Source of the DNA: an uncultured Bacteroidales bacterium
GTDB taxonomy: Bacteria > Bacteroidota > Bacteroidia > Bacteroidales > GCA-2748055
DNA length: 64,000 nt
Reading direction: 5' to 3'
Assembly (NCBI GenBank): GCA_963792395.1
Contig: CAWBWE010000006.1
Coordinates: forward strand, 14,973-78,972
Part shown: positions 22,415-39,969 of the stretch, piece by piece
Layout: every line of letters begins with the position of its first letter
How positions within the stretch are numbered: position 1 is the stretch's first letter
The notes under the pieces: model-generated
Told to the model about the DNA's origin: nothing
The model's input: only the letters and a program-made list of their open reading frames with translations
Databases searched by the model: none
Position numbers and translations under genes: made by a program

Positions 22415-23197
22415 ATGAATGAATTTTGCTTTATAGAACTGGACAGTCCGAGTCCCATTGTCACAGCGGCGATACATAACGGGCATAAACTAAGTGAATC
22501 CCTTTCTCGAATCAGTGCCCTGTCTGAAAAAGAGAGGTTCAGAGAAGAAGATCCATACACCGGGATCTGGGGAAATATATCGGAGAATCACATTGTTTCT
22601 CAACGGTCCCGCTTTGAATTTGATCTCAACCGCGCTCCTGAAAAGGCCATTTACCTCCTTCCTTCAGATGCCTGGGGACTGACCCTGTGGAAGCGGGAAC
22701 CCTCCAGGCGTTTGATTGCTCAAAGCCTGAACCGGTATCATAGCATTTACCAGGAGATCCGGGATGGACTGGAAACCCTGATTGGGCGCTATGGAAAGAT
22801 CGTCATCCTGGACCTGCACAGTTATAACCATCGCCGGGGGGGACCGGAAGCTCCACCGGACGATCCGGAATTAAATCCGGAAATCAATATTGGGACCGGG
22901 ACCATGGACCGGGATTACTGGGCTCCGGTGGTGGACCGGTTTTTAGAGGATCTGAGGGCTTTTGAATTTCAGGGGAAGAAATGGGATATCCGGGAAAATA
23001 TCAAGTTCCGGGGCGGATACTTCCCCTCCTGGATCCACAGCACATTCGGGGAATCTGCCTGTTGCATTTCCGTGGAGATGAAAAAATTTTTTATGGATGA
23101 ATGGTCGGGCCAGCCCGACTGGGATATGATTGATGCCGTCACCGGGGCCCTGTTTGATACCTTACCCGGCCTACAGGAGGAGATCACCAAAAAATGA
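22415..23197 (+). CDS. N-formylglutamate amidohydrolase family protein
   Basis: AIHNGH, REEDPYT, SRFEFDLNR, DLHSYN, NIGTG, EN.KF.GG, SVEMKKFFMDE. Confidence 0.88.
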   Translation: MNEFCFIELDSPSPIVTAAIHNGHKLSESLSRISALSEKERFREEDPYTGIWGNISENHIVSQRSRFEFDLNRAPEKAIYLLPSDAWGLTLWKREPSRRLIAQSLNRYHSIYQEIRDGLETLIGRYGKIVILDLHSYNHRRGGPEAPPDDPELNPEINIGTGTMDRDYWAPVVDRFLEDLRAFEFQGKKWDIRENIKFRGGYFPSWIHSTFGESACCISVEMKKFFMDEWSGQPDWDMIDAVTGALFDTLPGLQEEITKK

Positions 23198-25101
23198 GCC
23201 AGGGAATGACAAAGCCGGTAAGTGTACTCACAGAAAGTTTCCTGGAGGATATCAGCAGCAGGCTGGCAGAAAATAAGGTGGTCCGGCGGACCCTGCCGGC
23301 TCATGGCCGGTTGCATATGGACCGGAAACTACCTTTCATATGCATCTACCGTCGCCCGCTTCGGCGCAATGACAATGGAACGGATCAACTGGTCAAAGGG
23401 GAAGCGTCCTACCTGGTCGCCTCTGCAGCACCCAGGTATAAAGCCGGGATCTCTGCCCTGCTTCGATCAGTCCTGGAGATTCGTTCGACGGGTCCCGGTG
23501 CCTTCCTGATGATCGAGCTCTGGTCCAGGAAATCTCCGGAGTACATTATAGATCCTGAGGTGGGCCGGGTAGCTCCCTCCTTTCGCATCCATGTCCCGTC
23601 TTCACGACTCCCGGTAGAAGCCATCGAGTCCATAGAAAAAGCCTTAAAACAAATCACTGTATCCAGAAAACGGAGCAGGGTTTCAACCCTTATTACCAGC
23701 AAGCCCTGGCCTGAACAGCTGCCCCCCTTGCTGAGCTCGGCGGAATTGAAGAAATACAATTGTTACCTGGTGGGCATCGAGGTCTCCCCCATATACCGGA
23801 ACCCCGAAACAGGGGAGCTCTATCCGCTGGTGCTGAAGAAGATCCACCGGGGAGTATCCATAGCCCTGAAAAAAGGGGCCTTCGAATTCTCCCGGAAGCG
23901 CAATTCCACCTCTCCGGTAAGTTATAAATCCCTGGGCAGGCGGGCTGTGGTCAAGTCCGTCTGGGAGGTGGATCAGAAGCTGGCCGAGATCGGCAGCGCC
24001 ATGGATTTCCTCATGCATGTAACTCCGGTGAATATGGAGCAGTCCTGGCGGAAATTCAAGGAAAATGGATTCCGGCGCGACCCGGTATTCTTTTACAGGC
24101 CCGTATCCTTTGATCCCTCCCTGCTTAAAAGAAAACTCTACCAGATCCCCTTTGACCGGATCGAGGACCCGGCACTGGCTTCCCTGTTCCACGACAAGAT
24201 GGTGGAACTGGAGAGGAAGTTCTCCATGGTAAGGGACCGGAACACCAGGAATTTTTTCTTTGGGAGCATGCAGCTTTACGGAGAGATGGACCGGGAACTT
24301 CTGGAACTGGCCAGGTCCATCCTGATACATATTTCACCCCGCAGCCGCGAAAAAAACGGGAAACGGATGATTGGTGCCCAGGGCTTTGCCGCGCGCGCCA
24401 GGGAGGAAATAGAGCTGTATCGCAGGGCCTATCCCGAAATTAAATCCCAGGTCTTTATCCGGGAGGATATCGCCGGTCTGCTGGTCTCACACGGGAACCT
24501 GCTTGTAGGCGCAGGATTGCGTATTCATGAATCGAGGCTGGAAGCTCTGATCCAGCACGAGGTGGGCACCCATGTACTTACCTATGCCAATGGCTTAACC
24601 CAGCCTTTTAAACAACTGTGCTCCGGGCTTTCCGGAAACGATGAACTGCAGGAAGGACTGGCCGTGCTTGCCGAATACCTCGTGGGCGGCCTGAGTCCAC
24701 CCCGGTTCCGCCTGCTGGCCGGACGGGTGGTGGCCGCACAGCTGCTCATTGAGGGCTCAGACTTCCGGAATACCTTCAGGGAGTTGAATCAAACCTATGG
24801 ATTTGCCCAGAGAACCGCCTACATGATAACTGCCAGGATCTACCGGAGCGGGGGCCTGACCAAAGATGCCGTGTATCTGAGGGGTCTGGTTCAACTGTTA
24901 AAACACCTCCGGAACGGAGGGAAGCTGCAGCCCCTTCTGGTAGGCAAATTCTCCCTGGACGACGTATCTATCATCACAGAACTGCAACTGAGAAAAGTAT
25001 TGCATCCTGCCCTGCTCTTACCCCGATATCTCTCCAATCCCCAATCCCTGTTATTGCTGGAAGATTTAAAAAAAGGAAAACTTATTTTTAATTTAATATA
25101 A
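23194..25101 (+). CDS. DUF1704 / QEGLA-motif zinc metallopeptidase (MATCAP-like carboxypeptidase domain)
   Basis: HEVGTH (HExxxH), LQEGLAVLAEY, R.YRSGGLTKDAVYLRG. Confidence 0.88.
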   Translation: MSQGMTKPVSVLTESFLEDISSRLAENKVVRRTLPAHGRLHMDRKLPFICIYRRPLRRNDNGTDQLVKGEASYLVASAAPRYKAGISALLRSVLEIRSTGPGAFLMIELWSRKSPEYIIDPEVGRVAPSFRIHVPSSRLPVEAIESIEKALKQITVSRKRSRVSTLITSKPWPEQLPPLLSSAELKKYNCYLVGIEVSPIYRNPETGELYPLVLKKIHRGVSIALKKGAFEFSRKRNSTSPVSYKSLGRRAVVKSVWEVDQKLAEIGSAMDFLMHVTPVNMEQSWRKFKENGFRRDPVFFYRPVSFDPSLLKRKLYQIPFDRIEDPALASLFHDKMVELERKFSMVRDRNTRNFFFGSMQLYGEMDRELLELARSILIHISPRSREKNGKRMIGAQGFAARAREEIELYRRAYPEIKSQVFIREDIAGLLVSHGNLLVGAGLRIHESRLEALIQHEVGTHVLTYANGLTQPFKQLCSGLSGNDELQEGLAVLAEYLVGGLSPPRFRLLAGRVVAAQLLIEGSDFRNTFRELNQTYGFAQRTAYMITARIYRSGGLTKDAVYLRGLVQLLKHLRNGGKLQPLLVGKFSLDDVSIITELQLRKVLHPALLLPRYLSNPQSLLLLEDLKKGKLIFNLI

Positions 25102-25111
25102 ACTAAAGAAT

Positions 25112-26155
25112 ATGAAAATTGGATTTGTAGTAAATGATATTCAAACAGAACAAGCCGGTTATACCACAACTCGTCTTGGGATGTGGGCCACCAACCGCGG
25201 ACACGAAGTCTGGGTCATCGGTCTCGGTGACTTTGCCTATGATCCGGATGAAAACATCCGGGCCAGGGCATATTCGGTTCCCAAGAAAACCTATAAGAAT
25301 ACGGAAACCTATTTAAAAGTGCTGCAGAGTAAAACCCGGGTCATGAACCGCATTACGGTGGATGACCTGGATATCCTGATGCTCCGCAGTGATCCTGCCA
25401 ATGAAACTAACCGGCCCTGGGCCGTTACGGCAGGCATCAATTTTGGCCGGATTGCCATGCGGCATGGAGTCATCGTGCTGAACGATCCCAATGGCCTGGC
25501 CAAGGCACTGAATAAAAGCTATTTTCAACTATTCCCCGAAGAGGTGCGGCCGCAGACCATGATTACCCGCGACCCGGGAGATATCAAACACTTTGCCAAC
25601 GAGCACGGAGGTCACATAGTCCTGAAACCCCTGCAGGGATCCGGCGGGTCCGGAGTTTTCCTGGTCAGGCCCGAGGATAAATCAAACCTGAACCAGATTG
25701 TGGAAGCGCTGCAGAGAGACGGTTATATCATTGCACAGGAATACCTGCCTGCGGCCATTGAAGGCGACACCCGCCTGTTTATGATGAACGGGGCCCCTTT
25801 GCGGTACAAAGGCAAATACGCGGCTTTCAGAAGAGTCAGATCGGGCGATGATATGAGAAGCAACATCCATGCCGGGGGCAAACTGAGACAGGCCGAGATC
25901 ACCGACCAGCACCTGCAGCTGGCTGAAATAGTCCGTCCAAAACTCGTCCAGGACGGGATGTTCCTGGTGGGACTGGATATCGTGGGAAACAAACTGATGG
26001 AGATCAATGTGTTCAGTCCGGGCGGACTGGGCAGTGCCCAGAATTTTGAAAAGGTGAACTTCAGCAATGCCGTGCTTGATGCCCTGGAACGCAAAGTGGA
26101 ATACATGGGATTCTACCGCCGGAATTTCGACAACGACGAAATGGCCACGCTCTAG
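25112..26155 (+). CDS. Glutathione-synthetase-like ATP-grasp peptide ligase
   Basis: LMLRSDP, NDPNGL, VLKPLQGSGGSGVF, QEYLP...GD.R, RSNIHAGG, GLDIVG..LMEINVFSPGG. Confidence 0.88.
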   Translation: MKIGFVVNDIQTEQAGYTTTRLGMWATNRGHEVWVIGLGDFAYDPDENIRARAYSVPKKTYKNTETYLKVLQSKTRVMNRITVDDLDILMLRSDPANETNRPWAVTAGINFGRIAMRHGVIVLNDPNGLAKALNKSYFQLFPEEVRPQTMITRDPGDIKHFANEHGGHIVLKPLQGSGGSGVFLVRPEDKSNLNQIVEALQRDGYIIAQEYLPAAIEGDTRLFMMNGAPLRYKGKYAAFRRVRSGDDMRSNIHAGGKLRQAEITDQHLQLAEIVRPKLVQDGMFLVGLDIVGNKLMEINVFSPGGLGSAQNFEKVNFSNAVLDALERKVEYMGFYRRNFDNDEMATL

Positions 26156-27100: not shown

Positions 27101-27778
27101 TTATTTCGCTTCTTTCTTGGTTTTAATATTCTTCAGGACCTCTGCAGCAGACTCTTTGCCTCCCAGCCCAAAGGCCAGGCCAAAGGCCAGACAGATGGCT
27201 CCAAATACAAGGATAAAGGCATTGGTGATGATATCCTGGGCAATTTTCAGCTGCCCCAACACCAGGAATACCGTAAAGACAAGCACAGCAATATAGGCGA
27301 CCTTTTCGATCACTTCTGCTGTTTGATCATTCATGTTCTTCAACGAGGAGGAAAGTACGTTGGCAATAAACCTGGCAGCGTACAGACCAAACAATAAAAT
27401 GACCAGGGCCACAATAATGTTAGGTATGAACAATATGATGCTGTTAAATAAGTCCTGGGCACTGGTTAGCTCCAGCGAATTAAACACAGCCAGGATAACT
27501 GTCAGCATGATGATCCAGTAAAACAGGCTGCCAACCAGGTCTACGGCTGTACTTTTCATTCCACCCTGTTTCAGGAATTTTTCAATTCCCACCTTCTCGG
27601 AGAGGGTATTCAGCCGTACAAGAAGCAATAACTTGACAATGGCTTTTTTAAGGAGCTTGGCTATAATCCATCCAATCAATAAAATAAGCAGTGCTCCAAT
27701 AATTTTGGGCAGTGCCGTGGCAACTTCATTCAGAAATTGCTGTGAACTTTCAAGGAAAATTCGTACCTGTTCTTTCAT
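27101..27778 (-). CDS. Conserved-TM-helix repeat membrane protein (CmpX/MscS-associated)
   Basis: LPKIIGALLILLIGWIIAK and IPNIIVALVILLFG repeats; LAFGLAFGLGGKE.A. Confidence 0.85.
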   Translation of the reverse strand: MKEQVRIFLESSQQFLNEVATALPKIIGALLILLIGWIIAKLLKKAIVKLLLLVRLNTLSEKVGIEKFLKQGGMKSTAVDLVGSLFYWIIMLTVILAVFNSLELTSAQDLFNSIILFIPNIIVALVILLFGLYAARFIANVLSSSLKNMNDQTAEVIEKVAYIAVLVFTVFLVLGQLKIAQDIITNAFILVFGAICLAFGLAFGLGGKESAAEVLKNIKTKKEAK

Positions 27779-27819: not shown

Positions 27820-27847
27820 TTTAGACAGGCGAATAAGAAAAAGTCAC
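27820..27847 (-). promoter_or_regulatory. ECF-type promoter GTGACT-N15-GTCTAAA
   Basis: Reverse complement of tttagac...agtcac, upstream of the ATG at 27778. Confidence 0.72.
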
Positions 27848-28017: not shown

Positions 28018-28617
28018 ATGAAACAAAGTATAAGTAACAAGATGGAAAGTGTAATGCACTCCGGATTTAGTGATGACCAGTTGATCAGCCAGTTCCTGAA
28101 AGGGGATATGGACTGCTTCGGAGTTTTATACAGCAGATATTATCCCAAAGTTTATGCCAGGTGCTATTCCTTTTCAAGGAATGGGGACGATGCCTTTGAC
28201 ATGACTCAGGAAATACTGCTGAAGGCCATATCCAACCTGGGTTCATTCGGGGGCAACTCCAAATTCTCCACCTGGTTATATTCCATAGCGACCAACTATT
28301 GTATTACGCAGGCCGGTAAGAAAAGCCGCAAATACCATGAAGATGTAAAAGCAGCTTATGAGCTCCTGGATGAGCGGATGGATGAGGAAGATTATAGAGA
28401 AAGGCTGAAATGGGAGGCCCTGGAATCAAATCTGGATGAATACCTCGATTTGCTGCCCGAAGAGGAACGACAGCTACTGGAACTGAAATACCGGAAAAAC
28501 TTCTCGGTGAAAGACCTGCAGAAAGAATTTGACCTCTCTGCCAGTGCAGTAAAAATGCGTTTACACCGGGCAAGGATGAAGGTGAGCCTGCTGATCAGTA
28601 TCGAGGAAGCTGCTTAA
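28018..28617 (+). CDS. ECF sigma-70 factor (ECF-2), paralog of ECF-1
   Basis: LYSRYYPKVY..CYSF, SF.GNSKFSTWLYSIATNYC, SASAVKMRLHRAR. Confidence 0.93.
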   Translation: MKQSISNKMESVMHSGFSDDQLISQFLKGDMDCFGVLYSRYYPKVYARCYSFSRNGDDAFDMTQEILLKAISNLGSFGGNSKFSTWLYSIATNYCITQAGKKSRKYHEDVKAAYELLDERMDEEDYRERLKWEALESNLDEYLDLLPEEERQLLELKYRKNFSVKDLQKEFDLSASAVKMRLHRARMKVSLLISIEEAA

Positions 28618-28623
28618 CCAGAT

Positions 28624-29277
28624 TCAGGCCTCATCCAGAAACCCTTTCTGGATGGCAAATTTTACCAATCCGGCAGTGTTTTTCACGCCGAGTTTCTCCA
28701 GAAGATTTCTCCGGTGCGTATCCACGGTGCGGATACTGATAAACAGCTTGTCTGCGATCTCGGAATTGGAAAATTCCTGAGCGATCAATTTAAGCACCTC
28801 GATTTCTCTGGAGGATATGGGGATCTCAGCACTCTTTTTTCTCGAAGAGGCCGGTTTGTGCAGCTGCTCAATTAATATCGCGGAGACTTCTCTGCTGAAA
28901 TAACTGTCACCTTTGGACACAGATCGAATTGCCGTGAGCACTTCATCCTTTCCGGTATTTTTCAGCAGGAATCCAATGGCCCCCTTCTCCAGCGCCTGGA
29001 TTACAAAATCGTGCAATCCCATCATGGACAATATCAGAACTTTTGTCCCGGGGTGTTTCTGAGAAACCAGCTCCGTGATCTCAATCCCGTTTGGTTTCCC
29101 GATATCAATGTCCAGAACCAGAACATCTACCTCCAGACGGTCCATTTTTTCAATGACTTCAAGTCCGTTGGCAGCTTCATCCACGACCACCATGTCCTTC
29201 TCTTTTTCCAGAATGGACCGGACCCCTTCCCTGAAGATCTTATGATCATCCGCTAACAGAACTCTGATTTTATCCAT
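28624..29277 (-). CDS. NarL/LuxR-family response regulator
   Basis: LADDH, VLVLDI, GFLLK receiver; ISSREIEVLKLIAQ...TVDTHRRNLLEKLG HTH. Confidence 0.95.
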   Translation of the reverse strand: MDKIRVLLADDHKIFREGVRSILEKEKDMVVVDEAANGLEVIEKMDRLEVDVLVLDIDIGKPNGIEITELVSQKHPGTKVLILSMMGLHDFVIQALEKGAIGFLLKNTGKDEVLTAIRSVSKGDSYFSREVSAILIEQLHKPASSRKKSAEIPISSREIEVLKLIAQEFSNSEIADKLFISIRTVDTHRRNLLEKLGVKNTAGLVKFAIQKGFLDEA

Positions 29278-29302: not shown

Positions 29303-30313
29303 TTAGAGAGGGATCTCAATACTTGCGGTGGTCCCCATTTTTTCGTGCGAATCGAGGATGAAGGCACCGTTTAAGGTCCTGACTCTGGTCTCAATGTTCG
29401 TTAATCCGATTCCAAAATCCTCCAGCCTGTTTTTATTATGTTGGAAGCCCCTGCCATCATCTTCCACCATCAGTACAATGCTTTTATCATGCTTAATTAA
29501 CTGGACCAGTATTTCTGAGGCTGCGGCGTGTTTCACGGAATTGTTTATCAGTTCCTGCCCGCACCGGTAAAGATTAAGCTCCAGATCGTTCTCAAACCTG
29601 ATCTCAGGTCCAATATTGCTATAAAACTCCACTTTGGTCTTAATGGAATTATTCAGCTTGGTAATCAGGTTATTAAAGGCGGAATACATTCCAAATTCCT
29701 CCAGGAGCCTCGGAATTAAATAGTGAGAGAGGTTACGAAGATCATTGGTGATGGAATCCAGAGTCTGACGGATATTCACCAGTTTTTCTTCGTCCATATG
29801 TTGGCTCCGGTTCATAGGATCATCCATAAATGCATCCAGCTCAAGCTTGGAATAGGAGAGTAAGGGCCCGATACCATCGTGGATTTCCATGGCTATTCTT
29901 CTGCGCTCAATTTCCTGTCCAGCGATGATGGATTGAATGGACTCGGTCTCCATCTCTTTCAGCCTGGTAACCTCGTTAATGATACAAATAAAGCCATCCT
30001 GAATGCTGACCCCCTTGACGACAATAAAGCGGTCCTTAAGGTTAAGCACCTCTGTATTGAATGACTTTCTTTTCTTTTCCTGAAAAATACTCAGTTTGTC
30101 AAGCAGGATGGGGATGTGAGTAATGCACTCTGAAAAATTCCGGCCGGTAATTTTTTTGTTCAGCGGGCTTATCTGCAACAATAACTTTGCCAGATGGTTG
30201 GCACGGGTCACACGGCCCGATCCATCCACCGAGATAATTCCAAGGGGTGCAAACTTCATCAGAGAAGCAAGAAAGTCTTCCGCATCAAACGAATTTGATT
30301 GTTCCAATTCCAA
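29303..30313 (-). CDS. Cytoplasmic PAS + HisKA_3 sensor histidine kinase
   Basis: ERRRIAMEIHDGIG H-box, QELINNSVKHA, EDDGRGF, GIGLTNI; no TM segment; TTG start. Confidence 0.92.
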   Translation of the reverse strand: MELEQSNSFDAEDFLASLMKFAPLGIISVDGSGRVTRANHLAKLLLQISPLNKKITGRNFSECITHIPILLDKLSIFQEKKRKSFNTEVLNLKDRFIVVKGVSIQDGFICIINEVTRLKEMETESIQSIIAGQEIERRRIAMEIHDGIGPLLSYSKLELDAFMDDPMNRSQHMDEEKLVNIRQTLDSITNDLRNLSHYLIPRLLEEFGMYSAFNNLITKLNNSIKTKVEFYSNIGPEIRFENDLELNLYRCGQELINNSVKHAAASEILVQLIKHDKSIVLMVEDDGRGFQHNKNRLEDFGIGLTNIETRVRTLNGAFILDSHEKMGTTASIEIPL

Positions 30314-30397
30314 CTGTTTTTGTTGCCTGCTGTAAAAGTAGGCAGCAAATCATTCTGCGCCAAATAAAAAAAGAGCGGAAAATTTCGATCCCAACAT

Positions 30398-30425
30398 GTG
30401 ACCAAGGCTAACTATCGTGTCCCAA
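30398..30425 (+). promoter_or_regulatory. ECF-type promoter GTGACC-N15-GTCCCAA
   Basis: 17 nt upstream of the ATG at 30443; heads the USP-to-epimerase operon. Confidence 0.78.
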
Positions 30426-30442
30426 CAAAAAACCTTATCCTG

Positions 30443-31387
30443 ATGAGCAGACAAAGAATTCTGGTGCCTGTGGACGTAGATGCTCAATCTGATGCCGCAT
30501 TGGACTTTGCCCGGACCATAGCCACCCGTTTGAATGCAATGATTTCTTGTTTGTATGTGATTGATGAGAAAAAACTTCACACAAGCAAGCAAACAAGCAA
30601 GGAAGCCAGGCTAAAACAAAGACGGGAGGCAGAGAACAAACTTTCCGAAAAAGTGCATTCCGCTCTGAGTGATTCGAAAACACCTTTTGAGCTCATTGTC
30701 ACTTCGGGAAAAGTTCACGAAAAGATCCTGGAAAAGTCTGTAGAGCTGAATGCCCAGCTTATTATACTGAGTAAATCCAACTCCGGAGATCATCGAAAGA
30801 AACGAATAGGACCAGGCACAAAATACATTCTTTCAAACGCTCAGATTCCGGTAATATACCTGGGGAGAAACAGACTGGTGAACAGGGAAAATATTATTGT
30901 CCCGCTGGATCTGTTTAAGCCCATTGGGAGCCAGGTGGTATGTGCCATCGATACCGCCATGCTTCTGGGCGCTGCAGTTACCGTGATCTCCGTGATTGAA
31001 AAAGAGAAACTTAGCCTGCGGCCAGTATATCTGAAAAGACTGAAAGAAATCAGGCTGGTCCTGAGAGATATTAAAATCGACTGCACCTCGCTTCTTCTTA
31101 CTGCACAGGAATCTGTCGCGGACGAAATATTGTCCTTTTCAACAAAACCAGACTCCGCCATACTCCTGTTGCAAACAAATAACAGCATGAAAGCAAAAGA
31201 TCCGGCCATCGGATCTGTAGCCGCCGAGCTGATCCTGAAATCCGGGATCCCTGTTCAATGCATCAATTCGAATTTCGAATGCAGGAAGTTGGTGGATGAG
31301 TCCGGAGATTTTGTAAAAGCCAGTTCCCTGTCCTGGTTCTCCTTAAAGGATCATCTCATTAACAATCAACAAGAATTAGAAGTATGA
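30443..31387 (+). CDS. Universal stress protein (tandem USP domains)
   Basis: RILVPVD...S.AAL, IGPGTKYIL....IPV, IIVPLD, IGSVAAELI...IPV. Confidence 0.85.
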   Translation: MSRQRILVPVDVDAQSDAALDFARTIATRLNAMISCLYVIDEKKLHTSKQTSKEARLKQRREAENKLSEKVHSALSDSKTPFELIVTSGKVHEKILEKSVELNAQLIILSKSNSGDHRKKRIGPGTKYILSNAQIPVIYLGRNRLVNRENIIVPLDLFKPIGSQVVCAIDTAMLLGAAVTVISVIEKEKLSLRPVYLKRLKEIRLVLRDIKIDCTSLLLTAQESVADEILSFSTKPDSAILLLQTNNSMKAKDPAIGSVAAELILKSGIPVQCINSNFECRKLVDESGDFVKASSLSWFSLKDHLINNQQELEV

Positions 31388-32457
31388 ATAACCTCATAAA
31401 TATGCTCGATGGAGCAAACCCTGAAATTCCCGGTGTATCCAAAGAAACGCTTTTGCTCAGCGATGATGTGGGGAATAGAACACTCTCTCTGAGCGACCGG
31501 ATCGTATCCTTCGAAGATATCATGAATCTGGAGGTGGGAGATACCTCCTTCACCCGGGCCAGAAACCTGGAGCGGGAATCCGGGATCAGGCAGTTATTCC
31601 TGAAATTTGAGGGCAATAATCCCACGGGGACCCAGAAGGACCGCATCGCTTTCAGCCAGTGCCACGATGCCCTGAGAAGGGGATTTGACACCATCACTGT
31701 TGCCTCGTGCGGCAATTACGGAGCCGCCATAGCGCTGGCAGCCAAGCTGGCGGGTCTTGAATGCAGGATCTTTATCCCGGAAAATTATCATACCACCAGA
31801 ATTCAGGAAATGGAGGCCTATGGGGCCCGCGTGGAACGATTCCAGGGAAGCTATGAAGAATCGGTTATTCATTCCATTGAGCAGGCCAGCTCTTCGGAAT
31901 GGTATGATGCCAACCCGGGAGGCGCCAATACCCCCCTGCAGATCATGTCCTATGCTGAAATTGCCAATGAAATATACGATGTGCTGCGTGATGCTCCGAA
32001 AATGGTGGCGGTTCCGGTCTCCAACGGAACCCTTCTCACCGGGGTGTACCGGGGATTTGTAAATCTGTATAAGCGGGGAAAAACCTCCAGGATCCCTAAA
32101 ATGATTGCAGCCTCCTCCACGCATAAGAATCCCATTGTTTTCGCCTATAAGAAAAACCTGGATCGCTGCATTGATCTGACTCCGGAAAGCATCAAGGAAA
32201 CAAAGATAAATGAACCCCTGATAAACTGGCATAGTTTCGATGGAAACGAGGCCCTCTATTCCATCAGGGCATCCCATGGAGCCGCCTATGATATCAGTGA
32301 TGATAAAATGCTTCGCCTTACCAGGATTCTGAAGGAAAAGGAGGGCTTACATGTGCTCCCTGCTTCAACGGCCGGACTGGCAGCCCTGTTTGGGGTTCAT
32401 GCCATGGAAGAGCTGGAAGCAGACAGATATGTGGTCTTACTTACAGGAAAAAAATAA
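31384..32457 (+). CDS. Threonine-synthase-like fold-type II PLP enzyme
   Basis: LKFEGNNPTGTQKDR (PLP Lys), ASCGNYGAA, VPVSNGT, PASTAGLA, LLTG. Confidence 0.88.
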   Translation: MNNLINMLDGANPEIPGVSKETLLLSDDVGNRTLSLSDRIVSFEDIMNLEVGDTSFTRARNLERESGIRQLFLKFEGNNPTGTQKDRIAFSQCHDALRRGFDTITVASCGNYGAAIALAAKLAGLECRIFIPENYHTTRIQEMEAYGARVERFQGSYEESVIHSIEQASSSEWYDANPGGANTPLQIMSYAEIANEIYDVLRDAPKMVAVPVSNGTLLTGVYRGFVNLYKRGKTSRIPKMIAASSTHKNPIVFAYKKNLDRCIDLTPESIKETKINEPLINWHSFDGNEALYSIRASHGAAYDISDDKMLRLTRILKEKEGLHVLPASTAGLAALFGVHAMEELEADRYVVLLTGKK

Positions 32458-32465
32458 GATAGAGA

Positions 32466-33539
32466 ATGCTTACGCAAAAAGAAAACGCGGTCGTGTATTG
32501 CGAGGGTGCGTTCAATACCCCCAATGGCAAAACCGCTCATGGGCTGGTCCGTTTTACAGAACGCTACAAGATATGTTCGGTCATCGACTCCAGGTACCAG
32601 GGTTCTGATTCCGGGATGATCCTGGATGGACGGCCCAATGGCATTCCCGTAGTTCAGAACTTTAATGAAGCACTGATTGCCGCTACAAAAAGCAGGGACA
32701 TGATCAGGTACTTCATTATGGGAATTGCGCCGGATGGAGGAAGGATTCCGGAGAATGCCCTTCTGCCCATTGTCTCAGCCATAAAAGCAAGGATCAGCAT
32801 TGTAAGCGGACTCCATGATTTTCTTACAGAGGATGAAACCCTGGTGGAGCTGGCAAACAGTCATAATTGCGAGCTTCTGGATATCCGGAAACCTCCCAGA
32901 CGGAGTGAGTTGCATTTTTTTTCCGGGAAAATTGAAAAAGTAAGCAGTCCGAAAATAGCCATTCTGGGCACCGATTCGGCTATCGGGAAGCGGACCACTG
33001 CCTGGCTTCTGGTCCATGCGTTCCGGGCGGCGGGAAAAAAGGTTGAAATGATCGGGACCGGTCAGACGGCCTGGCTACAGGGGGCCAGATATTCCATTGT
33101 GCTTGATTCACTGGTCAATGATTTTGTTTCGGGCGAAATAGAGCATGTCATACATACAGCCTGGAAACAGGTAAAACCGGAGTTTATCATCCTGGAGGGC
33201 CAGGGCAGCCTGCTGAATCCAGCCTACCCCGGGGGATATGAGTTGATCGCCGCCGGAAGGCCCGACTTCATCGTACTCCAGCATGCCCCCAGAAGAAAGG
33301 AATATGACGGCTTTCCCGGTTACCCCATCCACGATCTGAAACGACAGCTGGAAGCGGTACAGATCATCTCGGGAAAGGAGGTGGTGGCCATCACCGTGAA
33401 TCACGAAGGAATGGCAAAGGAGGAAATCGTCGGGGAGTGTCAGAAGATCACGGAAGAAACGGGATTACCGGCATTTGATGTCCTGGAATATGGTGCAGAT
33501 GGATTAATGGAAGTGATCTTAACAAAAATAAACAGATAA
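32466..33539 (+). CDS. DUF1611 family protein (DgcN-like D-amino-acid N-acetyltransferase family)
   Basis: GKTAHGLVR, GIAPDGG, GLHDFL, GTDSAIGKRTT, TGQT, EGQGSL. Confidence 0.88.
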   Translation: MLTQKENAVVYCEGAFNTPNGKTAHGLVRFTERYKICSVIDSRYQGSDSGMILDGRPNGIPVVQNFNEALIAATKSRDMIRYFIMGIAPDGGRIPENALLPIVSAIKARISIVSGLHDFLTEDETLVELANSHNCELLDIRKPPRRSELHFFSGKIEKVSSPKIAILGTDSAIGKRTTAWLLVHAFRAAGKKVEMIGTGQTAWLQGARYSIVLDSLVNDFVSGEIEHVIHTAWKQVKPEFIILEGQGSLLNPAYPGGYELIAAGRPDFIVLQHAPRRKEYDGFPGYPIHDLKRQLEAVQIISGKEVVAITVNHEGMAKEEIVGECQKITEETGLPAFDVLEYGADGLMEVILTKINR

Positions 33540-35859
33540 TGTCGGAGGGAATTCGCTCTTTAGTATTTTTTGACAGGCTGAGCGTCAGCGAAATCGTCGT
33601 GGAGCCAAAACGGGTAAAAGCCAGAATTAGCCTGGCACTGAAATCCGGCGGGGAGGTTCACAATGAATTGATCTATTCCTATTCCGAACAGGTATTTGAG
33701 CAGAAAGCTTCTTCCTTTAATCTGGCGTCCATGATGGTCAGTCAGCTGGCCATAAACTATGGCCTGTTCTGTGAGGAAATGATCTTTGACGGCTTATTCG
33801 ATGATACGGACAAACGGTTTATCCTGGATGCACTTGAAAACACCTCCAGGGAAATTTATGTGAACAAATTTCTTGCAAAGAACGTGTTTCTGGTGGCTCC
33901 CTATGACCAGCTCTCCCTGGAAAAACAGAAGCGTTATACCGCGGCCAGGGTCAGTTTTCTGAATACCCGCTTTCCGGTGGAGGAAATGCACTGGGAACAC
34001 AGCGATACCCTGAGCAACAGCTACCTGGTTATGAGCAGCGGAGGAAAGGACAGCCTCCTGAGTTACGGATTACTGAAGGAACTGGGCCATGAGGTCCACC
34101 CCGTGTTCATCAATGAATCGGGCCGCCACTGGTACACGGCCACCAACGCCTTTACCTACCTGAGCGAAAACGAAGCAAATACGGCCAAGGTCTGGTCCAA
34201 CAGCGACCGCATTTTTAACTGGGTAATCCGCCAGATGCCCTGTATCCGGAAGGACTATAAATCGGTTCGCGCCGATATTTACCCCATCCGCCTGTGGACC
34301 GTGGCGGTCTTCCTGTTTGGCATTCTTCCCCTGGCTCAAAAAAGAAAGATCCGGAACATTGTCATCGGGAACGAATATGACACCACGATGAAGACCAACT
34401 TCAAGGGCATCACCCATTATGATTCCCTCTTCGATCAGAGCAAGTACTTTGACAATGCCCTGGCCCGCTACTATACAAAAAAAGGCTGGAGCCAGTTCCA
34501 GTTCTCCCTCTTAAGGAGCCTGTCCGAGTTACTGATCCAAAAGATCCTGGTGAAAAGATATCCCCATCTTCAGGCGCACCAGATCTCCTGTCATGCAGCG
34601 CATATAAAGGACAAACGGGCCTATCCCTGCGGGAAATGTGAGAAATGCAGGAGAATCGTAGCCATGCTGAAGGCCCTGGACGAAGATCCCGCGCATTGTG
34701 GTTATACCCAGGAACAGATGGATCATGCCCTTAAAACCATCACAGCCAAGGGAGTGAAGCAAATTGGTTCAGATGCCGCCCATCTCTTTCATCTCTTGCT
34801 TGAAAAGGAGCTTATTCAGAAAGATTCCCTCTCTGCAGGTCAGGCCGCGAATAATCCCGAGATCCTGAAGCTGAGGTTTGACAATGAAAGAAGCAGCCTG
34901 AATGATATGCCCCTGAAGCTTTATAAAGAGCTGCTTGGAATCTATCTCACCTATGCGGATGGTGCCGTTCAGAAACAGAAGAGGAAGTGGATAGAGTTTA
35001 ATGCCCTGGATGAGCTGGATCATTCTACCGCTTATCCCTTCGAACTGGGCAGCGGACATCTCAAGGGATATAACTCCAAATCGGAGTATCACTGGGCGAC
35101 CTTTACCTGGAAAGAAATTGAGAAAAAGCTGGAACAGGTGGATACCGCCATCCTGCCCTGCGGGTCCATTGAGCAGCACGGGCCTCACCTGCCGGTGGAT
35201 GTAGATTATTTCGACAGCGTATACCTGGCCGATAAGGTGGCCGAGGCCTGCAGTACCCCGAAACCCTTCGTTCTCCCCCCCTGCCCTATGGGGTGGCCTA
35301 CCATCACGAAGATTTCAAGGGAACCATCAGCATCTCCAACCATACCCTGTCGGCCCTGGTATTTGATATCGGGAAAAGCCTGGCTCACAATGGAATCAAA
35401 AAACTGATCATCCTGAATGGCCATGGAGACAATGCCCCCACGCTTTTGTATGCTGCCCAGATGATTAACAGGGAAACGGGAATATTTGTCTGTGTCGAAA
35501 CGGGAGAAACCAGTGATATGGATCTGTATGAACTGGTGGATACTCCAAATGATATCCATGCCGGGGAAATAGAAACAAGTACCTGCCTGGCCATACGTCC
35601 GGAGCTGGTTAAAATGGAGCTGGCGGTAAATGAGACCATGAACTTCGGCAGTTCCTATCTGGACTATACCTCTGAAAGAGGGGTGGCCTGGTATGTCCGG
35701 ACCAAGATCATTTCAGAATCCGGGGTGATGGGCAATCCCACCCTGGCTACCAGGGAGAAAGGCAAAAAACTATGGGAGATCATGATTGCGCATCTGGTCC
35801 GCTTTGTGGAAGAGGTCAAGAAAAGCAAACTGGAGGATCTCTACCAGCGCAAATACTAA
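33539..35859 (+). CDS. Fusion of a PP-loop adenine-nucleotide alpha-hydrolase domain (QueC/MurL-like) and a creatininase-family amidohydrolase; one-base frameshift in a C run at 35275-35281
   Basis: SSGGKDS and SC..CGKCEKC, then GSIEQHGPHLP, NGHGDN, HAGEIETS; adding one C gives LPPLPYGVAYHH and a single 773-aa ORF. Confidence 0.82.
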
Positions 35860-35866
35860 GAGAACC

Positions 35867-36949
35867 ATGAAAATAAAAGGAACGCTCTGTCAGGTCCGGA
35901 AGATGAAGCTGACAGAACCCTATTCTATTGCCTATGAATCCATAGATACCTGTGAAGGCGTTTTTATTCGTATCCACACTGAAACGGGTAACACCGGGCT
36001 TGGGTTTGCTGCTCCGGATCCGGAGGTGACGGGGGAGACTGCTGCGGAAGTCCTGGAATGCTTCCATTCCACCATGGAACCCTTGCTGAAAGGAAACGAT
36101 GTGTTTGCCTACGCCAGGATCATGGAATCTCTGAAGGAGAGTCTTCCCAAAAACCCCTCTGCCCGGGCCCTGGTGGACCTGGCCCTGTACGATCTGCTTG
36201 GACAGAAAGCAGGGCTTCCCCTTTACAAACTCCTGGGAGGGTTTCGAACGAAGATGGCCACCAGTATAACCATTGGTATTATGCCGCTGGAAAGGACCCT
36301 GGAACTTGCCGGGGAACATCTCAAAAAGGGGTTCAGAATCCTGAAGATCAAAGGGGGTATAAATTTGGACGAAGACATTGAGCGGATCATCCGGGTAAGA
36401 GAACTGGCCGGGCCTGAGATCAGGATCCGCTTTGATGCCAACCAGGGATATAGCCTGGAGGATTCCGTTCGCTTCGTAAAAGAAACCGAAGATTCTGACG
36501 TGGAATTGCTGGAACAGCCCACCCATAAAAATGACCTGGAGCTTCTTAAGAAAGTGACCCTGAAATCCTCCATTCCGGTGATGGCCGATGAAAGTCTGCT
36601 GTCCCTTTCGGATGTATTTCAGCTCTCGAAACATGGAAGCTCCGATCTGATCAACATTAAACTGATGAAGACCGGAGGCATCATGGAGGCCATGCATATT
36701 AACTCCGTGGCCCGGGCAGCAGGCATCAAGGCCATGGTGGGATGTATGGATGAATCGGCCCTGGGGATTTCTGCCGCCCTGCATTTTGCCCTCAGCAGGC
36801 CCAATGTGGAGTATGCCGACCTGGACGGGCACCTGGATGTGGAGGAAGATCCCTTCGGCGGCTTGCTCCAGATCAGGGATGGATTTATCCTGCCCCCGGA
36901 GGCCCCCGGACTGGGTTGGATTGGCAGGAAAGCGGATCCTTTTGAGTGA
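35867..36949 (+). CDS. Dipeptide epimerase (L-Ala-D/L-Glu epimerase / DgcA-like, enolase superfamily)
   Basis: KIKG, DANQG, EQP, ADES, NIKLMKTGG, GCM.ES, DLD. Confidence 0.9.
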   Translation: MKIKGTLCQVRKMKLTEPYSIAYESIDTCEGVFIRIHTETGNTGLGFAAPDPEVTGETAAEVLECFHSTMEPLLKGNDVFAYARIMESLKESLPKNPSARALVDLALYDLLGQKAGLPLYKLLGGFRTKMATSITIGIMPLERTLELAGEHLKKGFRILKIKGGINLDEDIERIIRVRELAGPEIRIRFDANQGYSLEDSVRFVKETEDSDVELLEQPTHKNDLELLKKVTLKSSIPVMADESLLSLSDVFQLSKHGSSDLINIKLMKTGGIMEAMHINSVARAAGIKAMVGCMDESALGISAALHFALSRPNVEYADLDGHLDVEEDPFGGLLQIRDGFILPPEAPGLGWIGRKADPFE

Positions 36950-36973
36950 CCACTGATGAAAACGCGGTCTAAT
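36946..36973 (+). promoter_or_regulatory. ECF-type promoter GTGACC-N15-GTCTAAT
   Basis: Overlaps the epimerase stop, upstream of the ATG at 37000. Confidence 0.72.
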
Positions 36974-36999
36974 TATTGGGACCTCTTTAAAAAACAGCT

Positions 37000-37821
37000 A
37001 TGAAATACACGCAACTGGTTGAAGAATTGAAACTCATGGTCAGCAATCTCTGGGAGTTTCTCCTTCAATTGCTTCCCAAGCTGATCTTAGGGCTTTTTGT
37101 ACTGTTTATCGGATATCTTGTTGCCAGGCTTGTCCGATACCTGGTAAGCCGCTTCATTGGCTATCTTGACCGGGTCATCAATAAGAATCTGAGCGGACAG
37201 CAGGTGCAGGTGAACCTGAGCAGCTCCAAAACTTTCATCGCCAAAGCATTTTTCTGGATCATTTTCTTTTTTACTATTACCCTGTTTACAGAGATCCTGG
37301 GCCTTCCGGTGATTACCTCCTGGCTGGCCGGGCTGGGTGATTACCTGCCCCGCTTACTGGCAGGACTGGTGGTTGTTTTTTTCGGGATCATATTCGGCCG
37401 GCTGGCTTCCGACCTGGTGAAAAGCAGGACCTTCAAATCAGGCATCTACAGCACGGCGATGCTGGGGAGGATCCTCAATTACACCATTCTGGTGATTTCC
37501 ATTATTATTGCCATTAACCAGGTGGGAATTGATATATCCTTTCTCACTTCCCTGACCTATATCCTGGTGGGGGCCCTCCTGTTTGGGGCTGCCCTGGCAT
37601 TCGGAATAGGGGCTAAAGCCTCTGTAAACAACATCCTGGCCTCCTATTACATTACCCGCAACTATGCCGAAGGGAACCTGATCCGGATCGGAGAACATGA
37701 AGGGAGAATTATTAAAATAAGCTCCACCTCTGTATTCCTGGAGACAGATTCCGGACAGGTCATCATTCCTGCAAAAGAGTTTAGTGAGCAAAAATCCATT
37801 CTAATTAAGAAGAAGCTTTAA
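37000..37821 (+). CDS. Conserved-TM-helix / truncated MscS-family protein
   Basis: LPKLILGL, YLPRLLAGL, ALAFGIGAK..VNNILA and the beta domain G..IRIGEHEGRI. Confidence 0.8.
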   Translation: MKYTQLVEELKLMVSNLWEFLLQLLPKLILGLFVLFIGYLVARLVRYLVSRFIGYLDRVINKNLSGQQVQVNLSSSKTFIAKAFFWIIFFFTITLFTEILGLPVITSWLAGLGDYLPRLLAGLVVVFFGIIFGRLASDLVKSRTFKSGIYSTAMLGRILNYTILVISIIIAINQVGIDISFLTSLTYILVGALLFGAALAFGIGAKASVNNILASYYITRNYAEGNLIRIGEHEGRIIKISSTSVFLETDSGQVIIPAKEFSEQKSILIKKKL

Positions 37822-38630
37822 TGAAATCAGATTTGATCCTTATCAAAGAGTTTATGCTGGAGAATAGCAAAGCGGCAGCCCGGGCGCTGGAGGAAGTGGA
37901 ACCGGAGAAACTGGCAGGCTTTTTTGATGACACTCCCGTTAAATGGCTGCTGGGAGTTTTTCCGCATATGAATCCTCATGTGGTCCTGAAGGTATTTGAA
38001 GGGATGGACCAGCAAAAGCTTGTTCAGCTTCTGGAATCCATGCAGATGAACCATCTGGTGGTCTCCATCCGGATGATGAATGAGGACCTGGCGGAAAAAA
38101 TGCTGAATGCACTTTCAGCTGAGAAGTCAGCCGCCGTCAAAGGATTGCTCCACTACTTCGATGACACCCTGGGTGCCCACATGGATGTTGGGGTGCTGAC
38201 CCTGCAGGAGAATCTGAGCGTGAAAGAGGCGCTGGAGCTCATTAAAAAACAGAAGGATGAGGTGCCGCCAGAGCTCTACATCGTCCGTGAGGACCGCAGA
38301 CTGCTGGGACTTATCTCCCTTTCGGCCCTGATTGTGGCTGATAAGGGCCAGGAGATCAATTCCCTGATGCGGACCGACTATCATACCCTGTCCCCGGAAA
38401 CACCCCTCCAGGCAGTCTTAACTCATCAGGACTGGAAAAAATATTACACCCTGCCTGTGGTCGACAAAAATTCTTTACTGCTGGGGGTGATCAAGCTGGA
38501 AACCATACGTTCCATCCTGCTCCATTCCGGCAGCAGGGCTGAAGAGACGGGGGAGCTGACTATCAATGCCCTGGGGGAACTGTATCGCCTTGGCCTGGCA
38601 GGCCTGTTAAGAACTGCCGCCGATCTGTAG
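37821..38630 (+). CDS. MgtE intracellular N-domain + CBS-pair protein, no membrane domain
   Basis: AARALE helical repeats, Y.DDTLGAHMD, LYIV....RLLG, LPVVD....LLGVI. Confidence 0.8.
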   Translation: MKSDLILIKEFMLENSKAAARALEEVEPEKLAGFFDDTPVKWLLGVFPHMNPHVVLKVFEGMDQQKLVQLLESMQMNHLVVSIRMMNEDLAEKMLNALSAEKSAAVKGLLHYFDDTLGAHMDVGVLTLQENLSVKEALELIKKQKDEVPPELYIVREDRRLLGLISLSALIVADKGQEINSLMRTDYHTLSPETPLQAVLTHQDWKKYYTLPVVDKNSLLLGVIKLETIRSILLHSGSRAEETGELTINALGELYRLGLAGLLRTAADL

Positions 38631-38652: not shown

Positions 38653-39969
38653 GTGAACATGGACCATCGTGAAGTAGAACAACAGTTGATTAATCAATAT
38701 TTTAAAAGCAGTCCGGCCGAAGCAGCCCGGATCCTGTCTTCCTTTGAAACCGAAGAGGCTCTGGAATATATAAACACTCAGCCGGCCCGGATTGCCAGTG
38801 AGCTTCTTTCCAGAATGAACCCTGAAAATGCAGCTGCTGTTCTGGAGCGTTTGGATGCGCTGAAATTCAAGGAACTCCTGGACCAACAGAATATATTTCT
38901 GTCAGCCCGCCTGATCTCCAGGTTCCGGAAAGAGAGCCTCAACACCCACCTGGAAAATCTGCCGGCCGCAAAAGCCAGGGAGCTACGGGAGCTGATCACT
39001 TACCCGCCCGATTGTGCCGCCTTCATGATGGATACGCAGGTCACCGTATTTACACACCAGACAACAGTAAAAGACGCACTTAAGACCTTTCGCGGCTTAA
39101 AAAACCGGAAGCTGTACCAGGTGTTCCTGATCGATGAGGAAGGTCGCCTGACCCATGCGGTCCCCGTTCAGGACATCGCTGTATCCGCTCCGGGGGTCTT
39201 ATTAAAAGATCTGACAGAAGGTTCGCCCATCTGCATTACTGCCCTGTCGCCCTCCCAGGAAGTGGTGGAATTACTGGATGAAAAGAAGCTGCTCAACCTG
39301 CCCGTGGTCGATATTAATAATCGCTTGCTGGGGGTGATCCGCAACAATGTGCTCATGGATGCTGCCCGGGAGGATGTCTCTCAGGATGTTCAGGCGATCT
39401 TTGGTGCCGGCCGGGAGGAGCGGGCCCTTTCCAAGGTCTCCCTCGCGGTCCGCAAACGCCTTCCCTGGCTGCAAATAAATCTCGTTACCGCATTCCTGGC
39501 AGCCTCCGTGGTAGCAATTTTCGAGGATACCATAGCAAGGATCACGGTACTGGCGGTATTTCTTCCCGTAGTGGCGGGCCAGTCCGGGAATACGGGATCC
39601 CAGGCACTGGCTGTTACCATGAGAGGACTGGCGCTGAGGGAAATCGGCATAAGTCAATGGTTTGTGGTGGCCCGCAAGGAAATACTCGTGGGTGCCATCA
39701 ACGGAGTGGCGGTGGCCATTACCACCGCCCTGATTGTATTCATCTGGGCTTCCTCCCTTGGACTGGCCCTGATTATAGGAGTTTCCATGGTCTTTTCAAT
39801 GGCCATTGCAGGTCTTTCGGGTGCCCTGATCCCGATGATCCTTCAATCCCTGGGACAGGACCCGGCTTCCTCCTCCTCCATTATTTTAACCACGGTCACC
39901 GATATTGTGGGCTTCGTGAGTTTCCTGGGACTGGCCACGGCGCTTGCCTCGGTTCTGGGCCTTGGTTAA
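38653..39969 (+). CDS. mgtE: Magnesium transporter MgtE
   Basis: YPPDCAAFMM, LPVVD, KRLPWLQINL, AGQSGNTGSQ, DPASSS.IILTTVTD. Confidence 0.93.
   Translation: MNMDHREVEQQLINQYFKSSPAEAARILSSFETEEALEYINTQPARIASELLSRMNPENAAAVLERLDALKFKELLDQQNIFLSARLISRFRKESLNTHLENLPAAKARELRELITYPPDCAAFMMDTQVTVFTHQTTVKDALKTFRGLKNRKLYQVFLIDEEGRLTHAVPVQDIAVSAPGVLLKDLTEGSPICITALSPSQEVVELLDEKKLLNLPVVDINNRLLGVIRNNVLMDAAREDVSQDVQAIFGAGREERALSKVSLAVRKRLPWLQINLVTAFLAASVVAIFEDTIARITVLAVFLPVVAGQSGNTGSQALAVTMRGLALREIGISQWFVVARKEILVGAINGVAVAITTALIVFIWASSLGLALIIGVSMVFSMAIAGLSGALIPMILQSLGQDPASSSSIILTTVTDIVGFVSFLGLATALASVLGLG

Follow-up and report, generated by a model that had tools for sequence, protein, structure and literature searches.

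A conserved four-enzyme operon with a MurL/QueC-like PP-loop ATPase and a possible role in stress-linked remodelling of an N-acylated amino acid or dipeptide

What is made by a set of genes in which a threonine-synthase-like enzyme, a DUF1611 protein, a PP-loop ATPase joined to a creatininase-type hydrolase and a dipeptide epimerase follow one another behind a universal stress protein (USP)? The question is raised by five co-directional open reading frames (ORFs) that lie head to tail on the forward strand at positions 30398-36949 of a 64,000-nucleotide stretch of contig CAWBWE010000006.1 from an uncultured Bacteroidales bacterium; this whole stretch is referred to here as the window. An initial annotation, made from the sequence alone, had described the five genes as an operon for a D-amino-acid or N-acyl pathway. 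The ORF listing of the window and our family scans confirm the place of the five ORFs and the families to which they had been assigned. We find that the four enzymes form a widely conserved core, and in the reading that we favour the operon serves neither threonine synthesis nor plain D-glutamate catabolism. We give an even chance to the proposal that it carries out an ATP-dependent, stress-linked remodelling of an N-acylated amino acid or dipeptide, with a product of D-configuration.

The five genes are tightly coupled, as the initial annotation had stated. The stop codon of the USP gene overlaps the start codon of the gene for the pyridoxal phosphate (PLP) enzyme in an ATGA (31384-31387), and the DUF1611 gene overlaps gene 4, which encodes the PP-loop ATPase, in a TAATG (33537-33541). 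Spacers of 8 nt (32458-32465) and 7 nt (35860-35866) separate the PLP enzyme gene from the DUF1611 gene and gene 4 from the epimerase gene, respectively. Relatives of the PP-loop gene are encoded in 547 of 593 candidate stretches from species-representative genomes; the locus counts given below refer to the best 80 loci kept from these 547, with neighbours identified by tblastn of the window proteins. The ThrC-like and DUF1611 genes lie directly upstream of the PP-loop gene on the same strand in 64 of the 70 loci with room for them, creatininase and epimerase lie directly downstream in 67 of 71, and all four core enzymes are present and colinear in 56 of the 65 loci with room on both sides. 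This core arrangement is far beyond chance. The expectation that the genes are conserved together is therefore borne out for the four enzymes, which keep the same order in those 56 loci; it fails for the USP gene, which directly adjoins the core upstream only in L013, L057 and L066, other USP ORFs being found near the operon in 11 further loci. As judged from these comparisons, the USP gene is a lineage-specific addition to a four-enzyme core.

The best 80 loci belong to Flavobacteriaceae, Cyclobacteriaceae, Saprospiraceae, Draconibacterium and other Bacteroidota, with some in metagenome-assembled genomes of Calditrichia and Desulfobacterota. Cultured species with the operon include Maribacter polysiphoniae, Kordia zhangzhouensis and Flexithrix dorotheae (loci L020, L025 and L026). 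Database relatives of the 515-residue N-terminal part of gene 4 number more than 3,000, with 396 representatives when clustered at 50%; most are fusion proteins of 773-785 amino acids, and there are also stand-alone proteins of ~500 amino acids. Among the 80 loci, the PP-loop and creatininase parts form one gene in 20 and two overlapping genes in 48, the remainder being unclassified (8) or at a contig end (4). The PP-loop domain is also joined to DUF1611 in an 855-residue database protein and to a methyltransferase in another one. Exceptions to the common order are one locus in which the epimerase gene lies 4.6 kb further on, locus L030, which is without the upstream ThrC-like/DUF1611 pair, and four Muriicola-type Flavobacteriaceae loci (L036, L052, L069 and L072) with an insertion of ~8 kb between the DUF1611 and PP-loop genes. 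This insertion, which lies at about 1.8-10 kb of each locus, encodes a PPDK_N-like protein of 966 residues, an MFS/TLC transporter with HEAT repeats (939 residues) and a beta-lactamase-family protein. Directly after the epimerase gene, 12 of the 80 loci carry a gene for a GNAT domain fused to a carbon-nitrogen (CN) hydrolase (509 residues; for example L022:13418-14947, + strand), on the same strand in 10; this fusion protein may be an accessory enzyme of the pathway. A protein of 1762 residues from the eukaryote proteome set, P0274, carries PALP, DUF1611_N/_C, PP-loop, creatininase and MR_MLE domains in operon order, with an incomplete DUF1611_C (profile positions 2-134 of 201); an artefact of gene prediction across an operon of bacterial type seems likelier here than a genuine fusion.

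The first core enzyme has a PALP domain and might be taken for a threonine synthase. It does not reach the thrC model TIGR00260 (94.7 bits against a cut-off of 167.1; 95.8 bits in the genome search). It does pass NF004996 ('PRK06381'), scoring 416.6 bits against a cut-off of 266, a model that was above its cut-off in none of 14 control genomes. We know of no characterised member of NF004996, which NCBI names 'threonine synthase'. When aligned to the ThrC structures 2zsj and 2d1f, the operon enzyme retains the PLP lysine (K85, in TQKDR), has CGNYG where ThrC has TGNTS, and reads NTPLQIMSYAE at the ThrC segment NPxRxEGQKT. The arginine of this segment binds phosphate in ThrC; the operon enzyme has Q186 in its place, and this glutamine is invariant in 71 of 71 operon-linked sequences. 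The active-site signature of the ThrC-like enzyme is invariant and specific to the subfamily. The same genome holds a second ThrC-type gene (G000:C22:152030-153038, - strand), found in two pieces of 137 and 134.6 bits, with thrB (C22:153238-154143) directly beside it. The initial annotation had named a role as sole housekeeping ThrC as the finding that would overturn its view; instead, a thrB-thrC pair is present on C22. Its remark that no thrA or thrB lies nearby also holds, in that neither is among the 16 neighbouring ORFs scanned, although no search aimed at thrA was made. By these signatures and scores, the operon PLP enzyme is neither a threonine synthase nor the housekeeping ThrC.

The PP-loop part of gene 4 (residues 1-515) passes no family in the Pfam scan. 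The family alignment reveals a PP-loop, SSGGKDS, at residues 166-172 (SSGGK[DE]S across the family) and four invariant cysteines, C351, C364, C367 and C370. An AlphaFold (AF2) model of this part has a pLDDT of 89.8 and a pTM of 0.89, and its top Foldseek matches are QatC, QueC and Cap9 (E 5e-5 to 7e-4). Likewise, a structural search of the model against representatives returns QueC (3bl5_A) with a Z score of 12.8 and an rmsd of 3.0, with 189 of 195 residues aligned, and Cap9 (9nto_B) with a Z score of 11.8; other PP-loop enzymes have Z scores of 8.9 or less. By sequence, the QueC family PF06508 is not reached (15.8 bits against a gathering score of 22, E 0.0099, over a 27-residue stretch), and comparison of a PP-loop profile with PDB sequences gives only weak PP-loop matches (E about 0.05-0.07). 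The only NCBIfam match other than creatininase models is MurL (NF041275), found for 11 of 25 family members with a best E of 3e-7; it scores 28.5-29.3 bits against a cut-off of 700 and covers residues 270-374 only (~105 residues). MurL is also the nearest named cluster in the language-model Atlas (0.96). Residues 1-155, folded alone, give a model with a pLDDT of 90.9, for which the best match among 48,161 chains has a Z score of 5.8, to RNase-H-like parts of reverse transcriptases; nothing distinct was found. Thus, the PP-loop part is predicted to have a QueC-like fold with a four-cysteine cluster, and MurL appears to be its closest named family.

MurL is reported to require ATP and Mg, to release AMP and to convert a C-terminal L-Glu to D-Glu in one direction, and its authors propose adenylation of the carboxylate as the mechanism (PMC5808125, PMC8788868). 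The PP-loop domain resembles MurL in that MurL, an AMP-forming enzyme that acts on a peptide C-terminal carboxylate, is the only characterised family matched by its sequence and the nearest named Atlas cluster. It differs from MurL in the short and weak match, in its context, which is without mur genes, and in being fused or coupled to a creatininase-type hydrolase. QueC, Cap9 (of type IV CBASS) and QatC (of QatABCD) share with it the PP-loop fold and a C-terminal four-cysteine cluster. Unlike these three, the PP-loop domain, which has no significant sequence match to them, is extended by an N-terminal domain of ~150 residues and by ~120 residues at its C-terminal end, and the operon has no deazapurine or defence-system context. 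We also considered the operon as a replacement for MurI in the supply of D-Glu; the presence of MurI in three of five carrier genomes tested argues against this.

The DUF1611 protein contains both Pfam domains of its family, a Rossmann-like N-terminal domain (PF17396) and a P-loop C-terminal domain (PF07755), and has 2g0t, 2obn and 7xrj as relatives in the PDB. A complex prediction for the DUF1611 protein and the PP-loop domain scored 0.00 and 0.00. The last gene encodes an enolase-superfamily enzyme whose best solved relatives are Bacillus subtilis YkfB (1jpm/1tkk, 257 bits) and the dipeptide epimerases of Enterococcus faecalis and Methylococcus capsulatus (3jva and 3rit). Its residues K160, K162, K265, E216 and D241 align to K160, K162, K268, E219 and D244 of YkfB, of which K162 and K268 are reported to be the catalytic pair (PMC5808125). 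The K-x-K motif and the lysine that pairs with it, like the metal ligands, are conserved in 65-66 of 66 operon-linked sequences, and D318-L-D320, which aligns to D321-F-D323 of YkfB, has each of its aspartates conserved in 65 of 66. The D-x-D motif of dipeptide epimerases binds the free N-terminal ammonium group of the substrate, and Arg24 of YkfB binds the side chain of the substrate glutamate. At position 24, 65 of the 66 operon epimerases carry Glu and the other carries Asp. Given these roles, the acidic position 24 and the retained D-x-D tentatively point to a dipeptide substrate whose N-terminus is free and whose C-terminal residue is non-acidic and perhaps basic. The invariantly acidic position also argues against Ala-Glu or D-Glu as the substrate, insofar as it can be read from the alignment. 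Compared with YkfB and YcjG, both L-Ala-D/L-Glu epimerases, the operon epimerase thus shares the K-x-K and lysine pair, the metal ligands and D-x-D; it differs at position 24, in falling short of the curated cut-offs (NF041118, 257.4 bits against 500; NF011708, 107.4 against 343) and in its genomic partners.

A connection with stress is suggested by a bipartite promoter-like motif of the extracytoplasmic function (ECF) type, GTGACC-N15-GTC, which the initial annotation had placed before the operon and which is indeed present there. With spacers of 14 to 16 nt, the motif occurs at eight sites in the window, all on the + strand (3608, 14972, 18436, 19773, 21472, 22382, 30398 and 36946), whereas 0.80 would be expected, and none of 100 shuffles reached eight. 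Six of the sites have the 15-nt spacing and lie 10-50 nt upstream of + strand ORFs; behind them are an outer-membrane-type protein, a 78-residue Lys/Ala-rich protein, DUF502 and TerC genes, an FGase/MATCAP/ATP-grasp gene set, the operon itself and MscS-like/MgtE genes. A seventh, at 21472, has a 16-nt spacing and falls shortly after the TTG that is annotated as the start of a second USP ORF. The repeated motif appears to define a stress-type regulon island in the window. When one mismatch is allowed, the window holds 18 sites against 12.6 ± 3.9 in shuffles, which is about chance, and a scan of 29800-37600 for sigma-70 promoters and terminators was likewise at chance level (7 against 8.1 and 12 against 9.1, respectively). 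In other genomes, the motif lies upstream of the USP gene in L013 (6903) and L057 (6857). With at most one mismatch allowed, 11 of 63 loci have it in the 300 nt that precede the ThrC-like gene, compared with 1 of 63 control segments.

The USP protein matches PF00582 in two stretches (70 bits, gathering score 24 bits). The ORF finder starts it at GTG 30398; an in-frame ATG at 30443 precedes the Usp domain. Since the GTG is the first base of the motif and so belongs to the promoter-like element, we place the start, probably, at ATG 30443. The operon is preceded by genes for an ECF sigma factor, a LuxR-type response regulator and a HisKA_3 histidine kinase (Table 1), and homologues of this trio stand beside the operon in L013, L015, L017, L040, L057, L075 and L092, ECF sigma ORFs being present in 12 of the 80 loci. 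By its position, the adjacent ECF sigma factor is a candidate reader of the motif.

Taken together, these features are consistent with the following route. The PLP enzyme would make or supply a non-phosphorylated amino acid, and the DUF1611 protein would acylate its amino group. The PP-loop enzyme would then adenylate the free alpha-carboxylate, converting ATP to AMP, with one of two outcomes: inversion at C-alpha, as proposed for MurL, or formation of an amide, as in QueC, Cap9 and QatC. The attached hydrolase would cleave an amide, either that of a cyclic intermediate or that of the acyl group. Finally, acting on a dipeptide whose N-terminus is free, the epimerase would convert the C-terminal residue between its L and D forms, the side chain being non-acidic and possibly basic. 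In sum, the enzymes would spend energy to make an amino acid or dipeptide of D-configuration under stress. In this lineage a tandem USP gene has been gained at the front, and an ECF-type promoter shared with other stress genes of the window would drive the operon. That the product is a compatible solute or a part of peptidoglycan, as the initial annotation had suggested, may at most be inferred.

Several points weigh against this proposal. The activity, substrate and product of all four enzymes are read from sequence, and the order of the steps is conjecture. The similarity to MurL is weak, at 28.5-29.3 bits against 700 over ~105 residues. Arg is found at position 24 of the M. capsulatus dipeptide epimerase as well, so specificity is not fixed by this position alone. 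An enolase-type epimerase and a MurL-like ATP-dependent epimerase that act on the same C-terminal centre would be redundant, which makes ligation or amidation a likelier task of the PP-loop enzyme than inversion. The operon is patchy in its distribution: of 400 other genomes sampled from the phylum, 6 carry it. The motif is absent at one mismatch or fewer from 52 of the 63 loci, so the link to stress may hold for only part of the family. Finally, the hydrolase domain is out of frame in the window; if the break is real, the operon is inactive here.

The last point bears on the possibility that the operon is a decaying pseudogene cluster in the source genome, which we consider doubtful, if a serious contender. 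The ORF of gene 4 in the window spans 33539-35407 (622 residues) and ends in the start of the creatininase domain. The frame of 33539 matches positions 2-66 of PF02633 with 63.7 bits (threshold 31.3 bits), and the ORF at 35293-35859 matches positions 67-238 with 149.9 bits; the domain is full-length but not contiguous. The PP-loop/creatininase fusion described in the initial annotation is therefore found in intact homologues, whereas in the window a one-base break had been missed. The frame switches at GTTCT-C7-TG, with a 1-nt deletion at 35274-35281. An intact homologue of 773 residues, P0003, has a contiguous creatininase domain (233 bits), is 98% identical over 585 residues and reads PFVLPPLPYGVAYHH straight across the site, and in a related-strain contig (run X6) an additional T behind 35273 restores the reading frame. 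In favour of decay, the break is present in the window sequence, and a search of sequencing runs found none with the exact window sequence (best word share 0.52), the contigs recovered being those of relatives only. Against it, this is a single break in ~6.5 kb, the other genes are intact with conserved catalytic residues, the site adjoins a C7 run, and both the 98% identical protein and the related contig are in frame. Because this assembly also has its housekeeping thrC divided between two frames (L001/L002, at profile position ~147-150), we regard the deletion as most likely an assembly indel, considerably more probable than a genuine inactivating mutation. We also considered programmed -1 frameshifting at C_CCC_CCC, which is rejected by the 20 fused full-length genes among the 80 loci and by the intact P0003. 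The homologues P0124, P0033 and P0023 are likewise cut or shifted no more than ~30 residues after the same P[KR]P[FW]VLP site, with P0124 changing frame right at it; these breaks are probably indel errors at homopolymer runs. In intact homologues, the best NCBIfam match of the hydrolase domain is MftE (134.9 bits). It belongs, like the mycofactocin peptidyl-dipeptidase MftE and like creatininase, to the creatininase family PF02633; unlike them, it lies under both equivalog cut-offs (172 and 235) and is fused to a PP-loop ATPase, with no mycofactocin genes present.

With regard to the reaction itself, the strongest rival of the route proposed above is one in which the PP-loop enzyme forms an amide and the product is a stress-protective dipeptide or amino-acid amide, that is, a compatible solute. 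In this scheme, the PP-loop enzyme would amidate or ligate the adenylated carboxylate, as AsnO does for N-acetylglutaminylglutamine amide (NAGGN) or as QueC does, and the DUF1611 or GNAT protein would N-acylate. We judge this unlikely on balance. In its favour, the QueC-like fold points to a family that converts carboxylates to amides, and the GNAT/CN-hydrolase fusion follows the epimerase gene in 12 of the 80 loci (10 on the same strand); CN-hydrolase domains supply ammonia to PP-loop synthetases, as in NAD synthetase. A solute would also suit the window, in which genes for MscS-type channels, USPs and Mg transporters share the promoter motif of the operon, and the scheme avoids two redundant epimerases. 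On the other hand, the roles of the hydrolase and the epimerase are hard to place in a simple solute pathway, and the osmotic context is seen only in this lineage. To our knowledge, no such solute has been described from these bacteria.

A more specific form of the inversion outcome has, in our view, a rather small chance of being correct. Here the DUF1611, PP-loop and creatininase trio would act as an ATP-driven, one-way machine for L-to-D inversion, through N-acylation, adenylation of the carboxylate, cyclisation with loss of the stereocentre and stereoselective opening by a creatininase-type ring hydrolase. Together with the PLP enzyme and the dipeptide epimerase, it would yield a D-amino acid or a dipeptide with a D-residue, non-canonical and probably basic, as the product of an ECF-sigma stress regulon in marine sediment Bacteroidota.

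Three further explanations are each disfavoured by the features described above. One is catabolism of the DgcN/DgcA type, in which the DUF1611 protein would N-acetylate D-Glu or another acidic D-amino acid, the enolase-superfamily enzyme would racemise it and the hydrolase would deacetylate it. Both proteins match the models of DgcN and DgcA, and with the hydrolase domain the operon shows the three-part logic of acylation, inversion and deacylation on a DUF1611 protein, an enolase-superfamily racemase/epimerase and a hydrolase; the DgcN route is itself reported to be an irreversible racemisation pathway for acidic D-amino acids (PMC12363236). However, both scores are far under the curated cut-offs, at 148.9 bits against 480 for DgcN (NF041892) and 166.4 against 400 for DgcA (NF042940). 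The epimerase is nearer to dipeptide epimerases, with its 257 bits to YkfB, and keeps the D-x-D motif, and its position 24, acidic in 66 of 66 sequences, fits an acidic substrate poorly. The PLP enzyme and the PP-loop ATPase, two additional conserved enzymes, have no place in the route, and the neighbour survey of the loci found no transporter conserved near the operon. We therefore hold this explanation to be improbable, in keeping with the view of the initial annotation that the operon is not one for plain D-Glu catabolism.

Recycling of peptidoglycan peptides, in which the epimerase would convert L-Ala-D-Glu to L-Ala-L-Glu and the other enzymes would trim murein peptides, has an equally slim prospect. 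B. subtilis YkfB is the best solved relative of the epimerase, YkfB and YcjG have been proposed to serve murein recycling (PMC5808125), and L,D-transpeptidase (LDT) genes are present in the same window. Nevertheless, the L-Ala-D/L-Glu epimerase models are not passed, position 24 is Glu (or once Asp) where YkfB has Arg, and no endopeptidase or dipeptidase partner is conserved next to the epimerase gene. The LDT genes are separated from the operon by 25 kb and are only weakly linked to the motif: a single exact site occurs near them (3608), with an atypical 14-nt spacing and a position within the first LDT ORF, past the signal-peptide-like start, and the site at 2591, upstream of the gene that precedes the LDT gene, has one mismatch and carries little weight because such sites occur at about chance frequency. 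The co-regulation of the operon with LDTs that the initial annotation had put forward is weakened accordingly. Least probable is a 7-deazapurine (queuosine-type) enzyme, with a PP-loop domain that would take 7-carboxy-7-deazaguanine as its substrate in the manner of QueC, Cap9 and QatC: these are its top structural matches and it has the QueC-like four-cysteine cluster, but its score against the Pfam QueC model stays below the threshold (15.8 bits against 22) and covers just 27 residues, MurL is nearer by sequence and by language-model features, and the conserved neighbours are all amino-acid enzymes, with no queD, queE, tgt or defence genes among them.

The coordinates of the operon, its promoter-like motif and the adjacent regulatory genes are collected in Table 1. 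The motif copy at the end of the operon marks, as its position indicates, the next transcription unit, downstream of the epimerase gene. This unit holds an MscS-like gene (37000, 273 residues), a gene with MgtE_N and CBS domains only (37821-38630) and a full MgtE gene (38653-39969), all on the + strand. The MscS-like ORF ends within the beta-domain (profile positions 13-62 of 68); it and the MgtE_N/CBS gene could be truncated or split forms, or real regulatory paralogues. On the other side of the operon, a one-mismatch copy of the motif on the - strand at 27847 precedes an MscS-type gene at 27778; in L075 and L085, the corresponding place is occupied by exact copies. Further upstream, three + strand genes lie behind one copy of the motif (22415-26155) and encode an N-formylglutamate-amidohydrolase-family protein (22415-23197), a MATCAP/DUF1704-type metallocarboxypeptidase-like protein (23194-25101) and an ATP-grasp protein of the glutathione-synthetase/RimK type (25112-26155). 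These may form a module that adds and removes peptide tails.

Table 1. Features of the operon and its surroundings, in window coordinates.
Feature	Position	Strand	Basis or remark
ECF sigma factor	28018-28617	+	Pfam
LuxR-type response regulator	28624-29277	-	Pfam
HisKA_3 histidine kinase	29303-30313	-	Pfam
ECF-type bipartite promoter-like motif GTGACC-N15-GTC	30398..30421	+	22 nt upstream of the USP ATG
Tandem universal stress protein (USP)	30443..31387	+	314 aa from the probable start, ATG 30443
ThrC-like fold-type-II PLP enzyme, NF004996 subfamily	31384..32457	+	NF004996, 416.6 bits
DUF1611 protein, DgcN paralogue	32466..33539	+	PF07755, 205 bits; PF17396, 77.6 bits
Gene 4, MurL/QueC-like PP-loop ATPase part (~515 aa)	33539..35083	+	Alignment, predicted fold, MurL model
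Gene 4, creatininase/MftE-type amidohydrolase domain, in two frames	35099..35859	+	PF02633
Frameshift site GTTCT-C7-TG in gene 4	35270..35283	+	One base fewer than intact relatives
Enolase-superfamily (MR_MLE) dipeptide epimerase	35867..36949	+	YkfB relatives, catalytic residues
Second copy of the promoter-like motif	36946..36969	+	Overlaps the epimerase stop; 31 nt upstream of the MscS-like gene (37000)

The operon is widely conserved, and we found no paper that describes it, including among the DUF1611 literature, which looks unrelated. Two of its genes are likely to be met under other names. The NCBI model names the PLP enzyme gene 'threonine synthase' although the ThrC signature is missing. 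A metagenomic survey of D-amino-acid cycling reports Bacteroidia as carriers of dgcN (PMC12363236), and in surveys of this kind the DUF1611 gene of the operon is likely counted as 'dgcN'; the scores suggest that such assignments are possibly wrong for this DUF1611 subfamily. The link to an ECF-type promoter gives a testable expression condition. The central enzyme would be a distant relative of MurL, the mechanism of which is itself unresolved, and the PP-loop enzyme may thus offer a second, soluble and easily expressed model for ATP-dependent chemistry on peptide carboxylates. If the DUF1611, PP-loop and creatininase trio does act as a one-way inversion machine, it would represent a second, racemase-independent bacterial route to D-amino acids for signalling or cell-wall editing.

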